Shown here in pieces: positions 40,249 through 45,505 of a stretch of 64,000 nt of DNA. Each line of letters opens with the position of its first letter. The first letter of the stretch is position 1. Both the position numbers and the translations under genes were made by a program. This DNA is from an uncultured candidate division Zixibacteria bacterium (GTDB lineage: Bacteria > Zixibacteria > MSB-5A5 > GN15 > FEB-12): contig CAWDXE010000007.1 of NCBI GenBank assembly GCA_963806185.1, positions 544,001 to 608,000 on the forward strand, in the 5' to 3' direction. The notes below the pieces were generated by a model, which did no database searches, was not told the DNA's origin, and was given only the letters and a program-made list of their open reading frames with translations.

Positions 40249-41211
40249 ATGGGAATGTCTAAGCAGGATCGTCTGCTGTTTATCCTTAATCTGCTGCGCA
40301 GTCGCAAGAATCTCAACGCGGCGCAACTGGCCGCGGAATGCGGTGTGACCGAGCGGTCGATCTATCGCGACATGCTTTCGTTGTCGGAGGCAAATGTCCC
40401 AATTTACTATGACAACGGATACAAGGTTGCTTCCGAAAACTTCCTCCCGCCGCTCAATTTCAGTTTTGAAGAATACCGGGCGTTGAAAATGGCGCTGGAG
40501 TCGTCGCCGCTGTCCAAAGCCGGTTCGTATGCAGAACTCTTCCGGCAGGTGCAGGCAAAGATCGAGGCCGGACTCACTGACGGTGTACGCGAACAGAAGC
40601 GCTTCGCCATTCCTACGACAGACGTAGAGGTGCCGCTTACGGTTCACGAGGAGTTGGCCGCTTCCTTCTTTACACAGATCGAAGAGGCAGTACTGCACGA
40701 TCTGGTGCTCGACATGGAGTACGATTCAATAGCGGCAGGGGTGGCGCGACGAGAGGTGGAGCCGTATTTCATCGTGTTCCGAGGGAGAGCATTTTATTTT
40801 GTCGCTTATTGCCATGAGCGCGAGGATTTCCGGACTTTTCGCATTGACCGGGTCAAAGCGCTGGCGATTAAGGCAGAGCACTTCCGTCGAAAATCAGGAA
40901 TTGATGCCAAGTCTTACTTCGGAGGCAGCTGGCAGTTTCATCGGGGTGAGCCGGTCGAAGTAGTCGTTCGATTCGTCGGCCGGGCAGCCCGAGTCGTCGC
41001 CTCCAGCCGGCATCACGCGGACGAAACGGTCGAAGTGGTGAATCCGGAGGAGGTGATTTACCGGGTTACCGTCTCCGGCATCGAGGAGATTAAGCGGTGG
41101 ATACTCGGGTTTGGCGCGGAGGCGTTAGTCCTTGAACCTCCTGAACTTAGAGACTCCATGGTAGCTCTGGTCAAGGCGCTCGCAGCGCTTTACGAGCCGT
41201 CTCAAAAATAA
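40249..41211 (+). CDS. wHTH-WYL-WCX transcriptional regulator (YafY/PafB-like)
   Basis: GVTERSIYRD HTH, REVEPY, FYFVAYCHEREDFRTFRIDRV and WILGFG...VLEPPEL. Confidence 0.93.
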   Translation: MGMSKQDRLLFILNLLRSRKNLNAAQLAAECGVTERSIYRDMLSLSEANVPIYYDNGYKVASENFLPPLNFSFEEYRALKMALESSPLSKAGSYAELFRQVQAKIEAGLTDGVREQKRFAIPTTDVEVPLTVHEELAASFFTQIEEAVLHDLVLDMEYDSIAAGVARREVEPYFIVFRGRAFYFVAYCHEREDFRTFRIDRVKALAIKAEHFRRKSGIDAKSYFGGSWQFHRGEPVEVVVRFVGRAARVVASSRHHADETVEVVNPEEVIYRVTVSGIEEIKRWILGFGAEALVLEPPELRDSMVALVKALAALYEPSQK

Positions 41212-41231
41212 TCGGAGAAACTTAAACTCGG

Positions 41232-41265
41232 ACTGACGGCATCTGTCAGTAGCCAAACTTATCGT
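41232..41265 (+). promoter_or_regulatory. WYL-regulator operator/promoter (PafBC-type)
   Basis: Palindrome ACTGAC-N7-GTCAGT; right arm forms TGTCAG-N10-TA-N3-T. Confidence 0.65.
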
Positions 41266-41289
41266 GTCCGAAGAAAGGAGACGGCTAGT

Positions 41290-41826
41290 ATGGCAATTAC
41301 CAGACGAGGGGAGCGTCCGAGGAAGACGGCAGTAAGTGATCGCCCCATGACCAAATCAGAACGCATATTATTCCTTATTGAACTGCTCAAGGCTCGCGGG
41401 TGCGTGGAGCGCGGTGAAGCGGCCGAAGCGTGCGGTATTTCTGAGCGGACGCTCTATCGCGACTTGCAGACATTGGCGCGGTTGAACATGCCGGTGGTTT
41501 CAGACGGTCCCTATATCCTGAAGACTGAGCGGGTTTCGATCGAGAATTTTGCCGAGACTTCGGATGCGGAATTGGCCAGGTACAGCCGGATACTGGAGAC
41601 GTTTATTTCCGCGATCAAGTGGGGGATGCCGTTGATTATCACTATGCTGGGGGAGCATCGCTCGACCGAGCATCGGCACCTGGCGCGCGGGATAAAGCTG
41701 AAGCGGAACGGGCTGTGCTTGTCGGTGTTATCCTATCCGCACAAGAAGCCGGCTGACATTCCCATTGCGCGAATAGTGCGGATGTCGGCGGTCACAGATG
41801 GTGCACGGGATGGCATCAACAACTGA
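41290..41826 (+). CDS. HTH_11 protein with a degenerate WYL-like C-terminus
   Basis: CGISERTLYRDLQTL similar to upstream gene; C-terminal DIPIARI resembles FRIDRV; AAGGAG RBS. Confidence 0.7.
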   Translation: MAITRRGERPRKTAVSDRPMTKSERILFLIELLKARGCVERGEAAEACGISERTLYRDLQTLARLNMPVVSDGPYILKTERVSIENFAETSDAELARYSRILETFISAIKWGMPLIITMLGEHRSTEHRHLARGIKLKRNGLCLSVLSYPHKKPADIPIARIVRMSAVTDGARDGINN

Positions 41827-41929
41827 GATTGTCCCGTTTATCGTGTAGTGACCGTTTCACAATTGCGGCCAATGTGAGGGTGCGAAGCGGGGGCCGTGTT
41901 GAAATCTTCCGGCTACAGATGCCGCTTGC

Positions 41930-41964
41930 AAAAACACGCCGTCGGGAGCAATTCCCGACGGCGT
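41930..41964 (-). terminator. Intrinsic terminator after DUF1573 gene
   Basis: ACGCCGTCGGGA-gcaat-TCCCGACGGCGT with T tract on minus strand. Confidence 0.8.
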
Positions 41965-41990
41965 ATTGGTGTGCGATCGATCGGCAGATT

Positions 41991-42743
41991 TTAGTGGCCA
42001 CTCACCTGCGTGGCGTTGGTTTCCGGAGCCGCGGCCTGTCCGGGCACGCGCAGTGCACGCTTGATGGGCACGGTAAACCGGTTGTGGGCTTCGTCATTTA
42101 CTTCAAAGGTAAACGATTTCTCGAACTCCTTTTCGACCGCTCCTTTGGTGAGGGCGATCGTAGCTTCCGCCGAACCGCCCGCTGCGACGCTCTTGGGGAG
42201 AGTGATGTTGACCAAGTCGGACGGAGCAGAAATAAGCGTCAAGTCCAACGGCTTATCGGACATGTTATTTATACGGAACTCCATCTTATCCCGGACCTTC
42301 TCGCCGAATTGCGACAGGTCGAGCTTGTAGGGCTTGATGGTGATTGGGAAGAGGGAGTCGGGCTTAATAACAACGTTGCAGGTGAACTCGACAAATTTCT
42401 CCGGATCGCCCTCGTTGGTCTCAATTTTCGGACGTTTGATGACGTGGCCGATGTAGCTGCCGGAACCGAAAATGATCTCCAGTTTTGCGCTGTCGCCCAC
42501 GGCGAGCGCATCCTTGTCCAGCGGCGTCTTGGTGCAGCCGCAACCGGGGGTCACTTTGACGATGTGAAGGGTGTCCTCGCCGGTTGACTTGAGCCAAAAG
42601 GCATGGGTAATCTGCGAGTTTTGCGGCACATACCCGAAGTTGAAGGTTGATTCCGAAATGTTCATGCGGGGCACGGCCATAGCTGAGCCGTTGATCAGAA
42701 AGGCGCAGGCTGTGGCGGCGATAGTGTGACGAAAGTTGATCAT
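41991..42743 (-). CDS. Exported DUF1573 / Ig-like protein (CGC motif)
   Basis: Signal peptide, FNFGYV, HAFWLKSTG and KVTPGCGCT. Confidence 0.88.
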   Translation of the reverse strand: MINFRHTIAATACAFLINGSAMAVPRMNISESTFNFGYVPQNSQITHAFWLKSTGEDTLHIVKVTPGCGCTKTPLDKDALAVGDSAKLEIIFGSGSYIGHVIKRPKIETNEGDPEKFVEFTCNVVIKPDSLFPITIKPYKLDLSQFGEKVRDKMEFRINNMSDKPLDLTLISAPSDLVNITLPKSVAAGGSAEATIALTKGAVEKEFEKSFTFEVNDEAHNRFTVPIKRALRVPGQAAAPETNATQVSGH

Positions 42744-42834
42744 CTCATTCTCCTCTTCTTGCTTGATTCGTGTAACAATCTATTATAGTTCTATTCTCGC
42801 TACTCGTTCCGGCTTCATCGTCCGCGGCGGACCC

Positions 42835-42868
42835 AAAAAAAAGAGCCGCTCGAAGCATCGAGCGGCTC
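42835..42868 (-). terminator. Intrinsic terminator between DUF1573 paralogues
   Basis: GAGCCGCTCGA-N4-TCGAGCGGCTC followed by T8 on minus strand. Confidence 0.88.
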
Positions 42869-42894
42869 AGGAATAACTTCCCTCAATTCAGCGC

Positions 42895-43698
42895 TTAGTG
42901 GCTGCCAGTCTGCGGTGTCGCCTGGTTGGCGGTCGGAGCGGCCGGTTCGCCCGGCTGGCCCGGAATCCGCAGGGCCCGTTTAATCGGGACGGAGAAGCGG
43001 GTGTGGGCTTCGTCCGAGAGTTCGAACGTGAAGATTTCCTCGAACTCCTTGGTCAGCGCTGCTTTCGTCAGTTTGATCGTCCCTTCAGCCGTCTGGCCGG
43101 CTGCGATGCTCTTGGGAAGAGTCACCGTCGCCAGTTCGTTCGGCAGGCAGACCATCGAGAGGTCGACCGGTTTGTCGGAGACGTTGACGATCATGAATTT
43201 CATCTGATCGCGCACTTTCTCTCCGAACTGCGAGAGATCGAGCTTGTAGGGGCGAATTCGCACCGGGTAGGTGGAATCCGGCTTCAGCGTGATGTTACAT
43301 CTGATCTCTACGAACTTGTCCGGCGGCCCTTCGTTGGACTCGATTTTGGGACGCTTACTGACGTTGCCTTGGTAATGCTTCGTGTCAAAAATGATCTTCA
43401 GCCGAGTGCTGTCACCGACAGCAAGTACCTCTCGTTCGAGAGGCGCCTTGGTGCATCCTCAGCCAGGGGTCACTTTGATGATGCGCAGGCTATCATCGCC
43501 CGTGGAATACAACCAGAAGTCGTGCACGATCGAGGCGTTCTGCGGAACGAAACCAAAGTCAAAAGTGCTTTCTTTGATCTCGAGCCGCGGAGCCGCCAGT
43601 GCCGCACCGGCTATCAGGAGCATGCCAATCGTCGCACCAATCAGGTGGCGTCGTGCTTTCATCACCGTTGATGTCCTCGCTATTTCAAGTGCTTTCAT
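42895..43698 (-). CDS. Exported DUF1573 / Ig-like protein, probable selenoprotein (UGC motif)
   Basis: ORFs 43459-43698 and 42895-43263 are in one frame separated only by TGA (43461-43459); read-through gives KVTPG-U-GCTKAPL, collinear with neighbour KVTPGCGCTKTPL; start 43698 or 43662. Confidence 0.85.
43425..43446 (-). promoter_or_regulatory. Putative bacterial SECIS element
   Basis: GCCUCUC-GAAC-GAGAGGU hairpin; G-initiated apical loop 21 nt 3' of UGA. Confidence 0.7.
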
Positions 43699-44441
43699 TA
43701 TTGTTGTCCGGTCATTGTGGTGGCGGCGTTCAGTACCGCCCCCTGGCGAACGGGAACAGTTATACGATAACTTTTCTTGCTCGCCGCTTCAAACGCTTCC
43801 AGAGTAATCGAACGTTCAAATCTTGTCGTGTCGTCAGGCTGGACCAGCCCTATCTGCGCTGTCACCACACCGCCCGGAGCGAGCTTTTCCGGTACGACTA
43901 CCTTCATTTTGTCGGCGGGCACCGAGACGACCTTCAGCCCGAGCTCCCGTCCGGAGAGATTGGACACCCGTATTCCGGCCGATTCCTTGCGAGCGGCTTT
44001 TGCGGTCGGAAACTCGACGGATGACGGACTGACCGATAAAAACGGGTTGGGTGACGGTGATGCAGTCACAACATTCAACCGAACCGGTTCCGGGCTGCCT
44101 TCAAAGAACACATATGCTGTCTGCGAAGTATCCGAGTCTGACTTGGAATTCCAAAGCAGAGTTACGCCGAGGGAATCGCCAGGCTGGGCGAGATCCCCAT
44201 TGCGATCCGCGCGAACGCAGCCGCAACCGGTCTTAACATCCCTAAGGCGGATCGTGTCGGCTGGGCCGGATCGGATCCAGAAAGTATGAGAGACGGTACC
44301 GGACGTGGAAATCATACCAAAATCAAACCGAGTAACTTCAAGAATCCCTTGTGATTGGGCTAATCCGACGGATCCGGTCAGGGAGATGCCCGCGACCAAG
44401 ATCAACCGAAGCCAACTTGTTATATTATAGCGGACATTCAC
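43698..44441 (-). CDS. Exported DUF1573 / Ig-like protein (divergent, CGC motif)
   Basis: FDFGMI, HTFWIRS, VKTGCGCV and FERSITLE; TTGACG-N17-TACCTT promoter at 44498-44470. Confidence 0.8.
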   Translation of the reverse strand: MNVRYNITSWLRLILVAGISLTGSVGLAQSQGILEVTRFDFGMISTSGTVSHTFWIRSGPADTIRLRDVKTGCGCVRADRNGDLAQPGDSLGVTLLWNSKSDSDTSQTAYVFFEGSPEPVRLNVVTASPSPNPFLSVSPSSVEFPTAKAARKESAGIRVSNLSGRELGLKVVSVPADKMKVVVPEKLAPGGVVTAQIGLVQPDDTTRFERSITLEAFEAASKKSYRITVPVRQGAVLNAATTMTGQQ

Positions 44442-44557
44442 CTATTTCGTTCCATACCAAATCGTTAGTAAGGTAGCCGGAATTTGCCAAAGCGTCAAGA
44501 CATTTCAAGTTTTGTACTTGTTCTGGGTCCATTTTGCACTCAATTTGGACACGGGAA

Positions 44558-45505
44558 ATGGACGATACGACAAATATAGTGACTGCAATTATAGACATCA
44601 GAGAATTAGTCAAGATTTACCCCGGCGGACGTCGGGGTAATATTGTGGCCGTCAACGGCGTCAGCATGACGATTCGACCGGGCGAGATAATCGGGTTGGT
44701 TGGTCCCAACGGAGCGGGCAAAACGACACTCGTCAAAGCGGTACTGGGACTGGTCCGAATCGACAAGGGAGAAGTCTACCTCAACGGATTGCCACCGGCC
44801 AATCCTGAGTCGCGCGAGAAGGTGGGGTATTTGGCGGAGAATCATCGATATCCTTCCCATCTTACCGGCAACAATCTGCTTCGCCTGACGGGGGAGATGC
44901 TAGGGATGTCGGCGAGCAGCATCCGAGAGCGGACGGAAGCACTGTTGCTCCTGGTCGGGATGAGCAAGTGGGGGGAGACTAAAGTCTCGAAGTATTCCAA
45001 AGGAATGGGGCAGCGCATTGGACTGGCCCAGGCGTTGATGGGAGATCCTGATTTATTGCTGTTGGATGAGCCGACCGACGGCATCGACCCCGTAGGAAAG
45101 ATAGAAATCCGCGAGGTGCTCAAGCAGTTGCGCCAACAGGGGAAGACCATTCTGCTCAATTCGCACCTCTTGTCCGAAGTGGAAGCGATAGCCGACCGGG
45201 TAGCGATGCTATCGCAGGGGAAATTAGTGAGGATCGCCACGATGGATGAACTAACCGTTAAGGGCATGCAGTTCGAAATCGTAGCGGACCTCGGCAACGA
45301 GATACTGGAGATTCCACCGGAGATCGGGAAGGTCATCACCATTGCCGCCAAGGGGATGATTGTAGAGCTGAAGAACGAGAGCGACATCAACGGGATTATC
45401 GATATCCTGCGCACGGCGAGAATTACCATTCATTCCATCGCGCCGCGGAAAATGACCTTGGAGCAATCCTTTATTGAGACGATAGCGAAGGCGGAGCAAA
45501 ACTGA
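44558..45505 (+). CDS. ABC transporter ATP-binding protein
   Basis: GPNGAGKTT, YSKGMGQR, LLLDEPTDG and NSH motifs. Confidence 0.94.
   Translation: MDDTTNIVTAIIDIRELVKIYPGGRRGNIVAVNGVSMTIRPGEIIGLVGPNGAGKTTLVKAVLGLVRIDKGEVYLNGLPPANPESREKVGYLAENHRYPSHLTGNNLLRLTGEMLGMSASSIRERTEALLLLVGMSKWGETKVSKYSKGMGQRIGLAQALMGDPDLLLLDEPTDGIDPVGKIEIREVLKQLRQQGKTILLNSHLLSEVEAIADRVAMLSQGKLVRIATMDELTVKGMQFEIVADLGNEILEIPPEIGKVITIAAKGMIVELKNESDINGIIDILRTARITIHSIAPRKMTLEQSFIETIAKAEQN

Follow-up and report, generated by a model that had tools for sequence, protein, structure and literature searches.

A Zixibacteria branch of the DUF1573 selenoproteins with a likely two-hairpin recoding signal

We analysed a window of 64,000 nt (the whole stretch of DNA under study) from the Zixibacteria genome G000, whose assembly is 82% complete. 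It carries three tandem genes on the minus strand, all with a DUF1573 domain (Pfam), the middle one bearing an in-frame TGA. The features of the locus, in the direction of transcription, are as follows.

43698..44441, minus strand: divergent Cys paralogue (TGCGC), upstream; its TAA overlaps the ATG at 43698
42895..43698, minus strand: predicted selenoprotein gene, 267 codons if started at 43698, with DUF1573 and another Ig domain of PapD/ASH-like type
43594..43662, minus strand: predicted signal peptide MKARRHLIGATIGMLLIAGAALA, A-L-A/A cleavage site by eye (sequence; helix in the structure model)
43459..43461, minus strand: in-frame UGA, predicted Sec80 of U-G-C (translation, alignment to Cys homologues)
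43424..43447, minus strand: hairpin A, +12 to +35 from the UGA; core GCCUCUC-GAAC-GAGAGGU at 43444-43427 (shuffles, covariation)
43407..43423, minus strand: hairpin B, UGCUGUC-GGU-GACAGCA, +36 to +52 (conservation, shuffles, Sec/Cys contrast)
42835..42868, minus strand: intrinsic-terminator-like 11-bp stem and T run, between the Sec gene and the Cys paralogue
41991..42743, minus strand: Cys paralogue (C-G-C), 64% identical to the Sec gene, without both hairpins

Plain table-11 gene calling cuts the Sec gene into two ORFs, 43459-43698 (79 aa) and 42895-43263. Translation bore out the sequence-only reading that they share one frame and are parted by the TGA at 43461-43459. With this TGA read as U, the span 42895-43698 gives 267 aa in which U80 is the sole recoded codon, in the context IKVTPG-U-GCTKAPLEREVLAVGDS. 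As had been claimed, the read-through product is collinear with that of the adjacent Cys gene; the identity is 64%, against 24% to the upstream paralogue, where the reported GCGC is present as TGCGC. The Pfam domain (PF07610) spans the recoded codon, covering residues 39–135 at 74.5 bits against a cut-off of 26.1. Met13 (43662) is the more likely start than 43698, since its column is conserved at 90% or above in an alignment of 119 proteins, and would give 255 codons; by our own reading of the sequence, it opens a signal-peptide-like stretch. Terminator-like stems in the region number three, versus 4.3 in shuffles, and the stem at 42835-42868 is rated on its own strength; a search of the locus for a sigma-70 consensus promoter found none. 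Convergent with the cluster, a PafBC-like pair, made up of a WYL/WCX regulator and, after it, a short HTH paralogue, lies at 40249-41826 on the plus strand.

Profile searches of G000 for the Sec machinery, a check proposed with the sequence-only reading, detected selA, selB, selD and tRNA-Sec (selC), all above curated cut-offs. SelB has the winged-helix end and selD itself contains a TGA. The tRNA-Sec, with anticodon UCA and discriminator G73, is the sole UCA tRNA of the genome, and tRNA-Trp has CCA. TGA ends 1449 of the 3008 predicted genes, more than any other stop codon, so there is no genome-wide reassignment. A Cys-inserting tRNA is recognized by a U73 discriminator; a Cys-inserting UCA tRNA was ruled out because the discriminator here is G.

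In a comparison set of 151 phylum genomes, relatives labelled Zixibacteria, DUF1573 homologues occur in all 151, a selA match in 147 and the PG-TGA-GC pattern in 131. The fetched loci yielded 207 distinct copies (5 further matches, with the position or flank absent, were dropped), of which 92 carry TGA, 113 a Cys codon and 2 something else, the alternation of TGA and Cys expected under Sec decoding. Because the same TGA is conserved across genomes, a sequencing error is ruled out, and we infer that the UGA is almost certainly decoded as Sec. It is very improbable that the UGA is a true stop, in a pseudogene, split gene or misassembly, or that it is otherwise read as Cys or Trp. A true stop would agree with the absence of a contig bridging the recoded codon in three read runs, which contained less than one-tenth of the words, and with an apparent frameshift in at least one G000 paralogue. 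Against it, the TGA is followed by an open, conserved frame in 131 of the 151 genomes and termination would halve the Ig domain; the tRNA and stop-codon inventory given above argues against another readout. An RNA-library contig from a related strain covers 42898-43248 and was left out of the evidence.

Scanning G000 de novo for UGA gave noisy results, among which repeats of about 69-nt period (contig C1, 835944-836834) turned up several times; by-eye reading together with five family searches gave four selenoprotein candidates: selD, two DUF1573 copies and one thioredoxin-TPR (Trx-TPR) gene. With the genome 82% complete and five families covered, this list is a minimum; molybdopterin, AhpC/TSA, FlpD and Pyr_redox_2 matches in G000 contained no TGA. 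The Trx-TPR gene (contig C3, 277892, minus strand; locus L265, 1701-3598) encodes an exported thioredoxin with W-U-S-W-C, beside a tandem Cys paralogue, and is the only selenoprotein found in G000 that is neither SelD nor DUF1573. Its discovery led us to drop the idea that DUF1573 is the phylum's only reason to keep Sec. In this family, whose motif is W-U-x-x-C, 50 of the 102 matches listed (101 genomes) contain one TGA; its position was checked for the 15 copies with TGA in a set of 30 fetched loci. The second Sec DUF1573 copy (contig C7, 86900-87790, plus strand; locus L008, 14901-15790) carries both hairpins and a longer, membrane-anchor-like N-terminus; its second domain is apparently frameshifted, through either decay or an assembly error. 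Separately, loci L041-L053 (selD matches in families f5 and f8 and in two f1 genomes) hold SelD-like domains without TGA in open frames of 713–796 codons, likely fusion proteins.

Hairpin A had been put forward in the sequence-only reading as the SECIS element. Its 7-bp stem and GAAC loop, at +22 to +25 and thus 21 nt past the UGA, are present as described, and the region is more stable than shuffles (z -2.5 over 31 nt, -2.7 over 60 nt and, more weakly, -1.6 over 80 nt), while the Cys copy in the same test gives z +0.6, in line with the earlier statement that its codons do not form the hairpin. With synonymous shuffles, the median z is -2.7 in 85 Sec copies and about 0 in 113 Cys copies. The hairpin also covaries among homologues, as had been proposed for checking, with 69 double-change cells versus 33 in shuffles, exceeding every slid control. 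The RNAalifold consensus of the 85 copies (-6.4) was uninformative. We considered an extended lower stem between +2..+9 and +43..+51 and rejected it as a conserved feature, since +3 and +9 vary uncompensated and the mean pair probability is at most 0.14.

Directly downstream, abutting hairpin A, lies hairpin B, which is absent from the sequence-only reading: a 7-bp stem with its loop at 43416-43414, 42 nt past the UGA. Each of the 31 TGA copies that were picked for their protein similarity has the motif GCUGUC-GGY-GACAGY at +37..+51. Among the PG-U-GC matches listed (150 of 158), obtained with a pattern blind to the hairpin region and classified by eye, 126 have the exact hairpin B, 12 a variant of it, 8 an alternative distal hairpin and 2 neither, and 2 are non-homologous; about 11–12 copies have a mismatched or weakened B, and 2 no visible distal hairpin. 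Hairpin B scarcely covaries within Zixibacteria, where it shows almost no variation: of 25 fourfold sites in the gene only two are invariant, both of them in its stem, with its loop U ranking third in conservation. Of the 85 main-class Sec copies, 81 have a G[GU] loop here; this set was defined by a B-like match (the B pattern was used to fetch 40 of its loci), so that invariance figures from it are partly circular and the similarity-picked and PG-U-GC counts are the unbiased ones. Synonymous shuffles give a median z of -3.0 in the 85 Sec copies and about 0 in the 113 Cys copies, only 2 of which have the exact hairpin. Rfam release 15, searched over 41800-44700, returned 7 weak matches at E <= 5, with no SECIS family among them.

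A tree of 201 sequences, built with hairpin residues masked and 9 short sequences left out, requires about 29 U/C state changes, versus 66 for shuffled labels, and Sec and Cys copies of one locus are frequently sister tips. This suggests either repeated duplication with a Sec-to-Cys change or gene conversion sparing the Sec/SECIS segment. In 12 such same-locus pairs, several at poorly supported nodes, the Cys partner keeps the exact hairpin B once and a strong hairpin A twice. Given this loss in Cys partners and copies, the hairpins track the UGA and not the lineage. Cys-codon copies that keep the exact hairpin B occur at L075/L038 (genome G105, which has selA and in which no TGA copy was found) and L143 (G021); they are probably recent Sec-to-Cys changes, and the accessible part of PMC1794560 provides a precedent for remnant SECIS elements in reverted Cys copies. 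Four genomes (G110, G021, G046 and G116) hold TGA copies with hairpin B yet have no selA match at 1e-30; since two of the four have a TGA-containing selD, an unassembled selA is likely.

The bSECISearch model specifies a 3–9 nt loop with G in its first two positions and an MFE <= -7.5 (PMC13188914). Canonical bacterial elements lie 16–37 nt from the UGA, often with a G-G/G-U loop, and some genes do not fit (PMC13188914); the available text of PMC10778597 gives the distance likewise. Hairpin A of this copy falls within these limits, with its GAAC loop at 21 nt and -11.9 kcal/mol, and hairpin A alone passes the canonical model in 46 of the 85 Zixibacteria copies. Hairpin B has the stem (7 bp, at least 4 being specified), the G[GU] loop (GGU) and the energy (-9.1 kcal/mol), but at 42 nt it misses the 16–37 nt spacing, and 0 of the 85 copies pass. 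One reading, which we regard as unlikely, is that Sec is inserted with hairpin A as an ordinary SECIS and hairpin B as an accessory that slows the ribosome, blocks the release factor or stabilizes the mRNA. The canonical distance, selection and covariation of hairpin A speak for it, as does the GG of loop B doubling as a Gly codon that 97 of the 113 Cys copies retain. The loop of hairpin A speaks against it: position +22 is G in 48 of the 85 Sec copies, G[GU] occurs in only 14, and hairpins at the same position in Cys copies have the G in 47 of 97 from codon content alone, so that no conserved loop G or G[GU] is found for hairpin A across orthologues.

The other selenoprotein genes of the same genomes point in the same direction. 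The SECIS of selD, in each of the 15 TGA copies, combines a 6–7 bp stem with a loop of GGU/GUU type at +20/21 (16 of 30 loci matched the motif used). The Trx-TPR gene of G000 has a canonical ACAC-GGUC-GUGU with its loop at +24, and the core YAC-GGUC-GUR stands at +24 in all 15 TGA copies fetched. These G-G/U-N loops resemble hairpin B and not hairpin A, and the anatomy of hairpin B is that of the phylum's selD SECIS. In the alternative class of DUF1573 copies, 6 of 7 have a longer arm followed by CCAC-GGUC-GUGG with its loop at +54, sharing the CAC-GGUC-GUG core with the Trx-TPR SECIS but 30 nt farther out.

An outgroup was obtained from metagenomes with a TG-U-GC pattern, which matched 120 loci, 115 of them distinct and 105 both homologous and long enough. 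All six of the KTG-U-GC copies tested pass the NCBIfam OS_HP2 model NF041425 (scores 131–144). These OS_HP2-type copies have an arm at +12..+29 and a G-G-N triloop hairpin at +40, of different sequence from Zixibacteria. Both hairpins are under selection in the 105 copies (z -2.2 and -2.7), the arm covaries (60 of the 105 aligned), and 102 of 105 have a distal G[GU] loop, in most cases at +40. An MFE scan placed a hairpin with a loop G in the canonical range in only 3 of 105. A relaxed scan, in which the G18-C23 closing pair is opened, found a G[GU] loop at 17 nt in 48 of 105, so these copies can expose a GU-starting loop, a point in favour of hairpin A as the SECIS; against this, G18 is a wobble base of the arm, present in 44 of 105.

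When the length of arm A is subtracted, the median spacing becomes 18 nt in the main class and 23 nt in OS_HP2-type copies, and the spacings in the alternative class become 20–25 nt, all within the 16–37 nt model and comparable to selD (19–20) and thioredoxin (23). From these comparisons we consider it quite probable that hairpin B is the SelB site and hairpin A a spacer arm. Hairpin A would fold out about 24 nt, and SelB would bind the distal G-G-U loop of hairpin B. The earlier proposal of hairpin A as the SECIS therefore stands in part: the hairpin is real, under selection and covarying, but with G at +22 in just 48 of 85 copies it is probably not the loop that SelB recognizes. Somewhat less firmly, the three versions appear to form a distinct class of bacterial SECIS, in which a sequence-free arm would loop out 18–33 nt and so bring an ordinary SelB-binding G-G-U hairpin, 39–53 nt downstream of the UGA, within canonical reach.

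The structure model of the Sec protein (mean pLDDT 92) shows a helix at the N-terminus and a pair of Ig domains of the ASH/PapD/MSP type.

43288..43590, minus strand: Ig domain 1 (DUF1573; ASH/PapD-like), from Pfam, the model and structural matches
42976..43266, minus strand: Ig domain 2 (MSP/PapD chaperone-like fold), from the model and structural matches

The predicted signal peptide and the two-domain model support the exported Ig-like protein with U-G-C anticipated by the sequence-only reading, and the Sec protein is predicted to be exported. In the model, U80-G-C82 sits between strands 71–77 and 82–84 of domain 1; throughout the 119 aligned proteins C82 never varies, and conservation at position 80 is 90% or above. 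The structures matched best, at Z 10.6–12.8 and with about 97 residues in each domain, were the C-terminal domain of VesC/VesB, HYDIN, CEP192, pilus chaperones and P. gingivalis 2QSV, and a PDB sequence search with the Sec protein gave no match.

CsgC carries its redox CxC (-139 mV) on an Ig fold, a CGC peptide has -167 mV (both from the accessible part of PMC3173608), and MauE requires a periplasmic CGC, according to the part available of bioRxiv 10.64898/2026.03.05.709764. We tentatively favour, at somewhat short of even chances, an extracytoplasmic thiol-disulfide shuttle acting through U80-C82. Its selenenylsulfide would undergo exchange with the disulfides of further envelope proteins, in the manner of CsgC and nDsbD, and the recurrent Cys duplicates would act as selenium-independent versions. 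The Trx-TPR protein, the other non-SelD selenoprotein found in G000, offers a further analogy, being exported, thioredoxin-like and likewise paired with a tandem Cys copy. The same recoding could serve a U-G-C site for soft metals or metalloids (Cu, Hg or As) in the envelope, which we hold to be improbable. For metal binding, ArsP-permease, LMW phosphatase/arsenate-reductase-like, ABC and ArsF-family genes surround the second Sec copy of G000 (some 13 kb away from selC), and a similar ABC permease is found at 6 of 79 loci and an SBF/Acr3-type transporter at 4 of 79; against it, the main locus has no frequent metal-transport neighbour and the 119-protein alignment shows no invariant His or Met besides the start Met. 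The neighbours of the 79 DUF1573 loci include a GWxTD protein (46 of 79; L012-L144), LexA (22 of 79) and an ABC ATPase (19 of 79), with no redox pathway and no functional partner indicated among them. Taken as a whole, the reading in which the UGA is decoded as Sec, probably by SelB bound to hairpin B with hairpin A as the spacer, in an exported U-G-C shuttle, seems to us probable on balance.

Whether Sec forms of DUF1573 were already catalogued had been left open by the sequence-only reading. They are: 'DUF1573 domain-containing protein, UGC' is listed in selenoproteome review tables (PMC9312934 and PMC13188914), so that the selenoprotein itself is an annotation fix. OS_HP2 was described by Zhang & Gladyshev 2007, in the part of PMC1976440 available, where the SECIS figure legend covers five of the six new families and omits OS_HP2; from row position, reference and HMM hits, OS_HP2 appears to be the DUF1573 UGC table row. 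The protein described here has the U-G-C motif and the Pfam score (74.5 versus 26.1 bits) of the DUF1573 UGC selenoproteins and scores 67.9 bits with NF041425, below the cut-off of 100. The Zixibacteria DUF1573 selenoprotein is a new branch of a known family; predicted to be exported, it is present in most genomes sampled from this uncultured phylum and scores under the NCBIfam cut-off. In the titles and abstracts of the literature on selenocysteine and selenoproteins in Zixibacteria we found no paper on this family.

The novelty lies in the two-hairpin recoding signal, likely with the SelB site beyond the canonical distance. We found no description of tandem or distal bacterial SECIS elements in the open-access literature. 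Prediction of bacterial SECIS elements has the 16–37 nt rule built in; in the parts available, reviews state that other bacterial SECIS classes must exist and describe none. The DUF1573 family offers a concrete candidate class in three sequence-distinct versions, with internal controls in the selD and Trx SECIS of the same genomes and in the Cys sister genes. New here are the phylum-wide counts, the contrast of Cys sister pairs, the selD and thioredoxin references and the core shared at two distances. If the interpretation is true, mRNA distance is not the constraint on bacterial Sec insertion, and spacer-arm elements could explain part of the catalogued genes without a canonical SECIS, which make up 12.6% of BSepDB entries, with canonical elements in 87.4%, in the part of that source available. 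In the design of recombinant selenoproteins, where the SECIS currently forces changes beside Sec, the SelB site could then move away from Sec-adjacent residues.

Both domains of the Sec protein have the fold of the ASH/PapD domains of HYDIN, CEP192, VesB/VesC, 2QSV and the pilus chaperones. We know of no Sec in these proteins, and the shared fold shows no function. Like CsgC (CxC) and nDsbD, the Sec protein is an Ig-like beta-sandwich, predicted to be exported, with a close thiol/selenol pair on a loop, the activity here being predicted as well. Unlike them, it has the ASH/PapD topology, two domains and Sec; by strand order in the model, its U-G-C lies in a different loop from the CxC of CsgC. 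CsgC and nDsbD are absent from the best 50 structural matches listed. The likeness to OS_HP2/DUF1573 UGC is closer, extending to the Pfam domain, the U-G-C position, the signal peptide and the existence of Cys homologues, and the tandem-hairpin layout is shared with the OS_HP2-type metagenomic genes. The Zixibacteria branch differs in having PG-U-GC instead of TG-U-GC, other hairpin sequences and recurrent tandem Cys duplicates. As with the canonical bacterial SECIS, the signal is within the coding region just 3' of the UGA, with a short stem and a G-G/U loop. Unlike the canonical element, it consists of two abutting hairpins, the one at canonical distance has a variable loop, and the loop whose G is conserved is 39 nt away from the UGA in OS_HP2-type genes, 42 nt in the main class and 53 nt in the alternative class.
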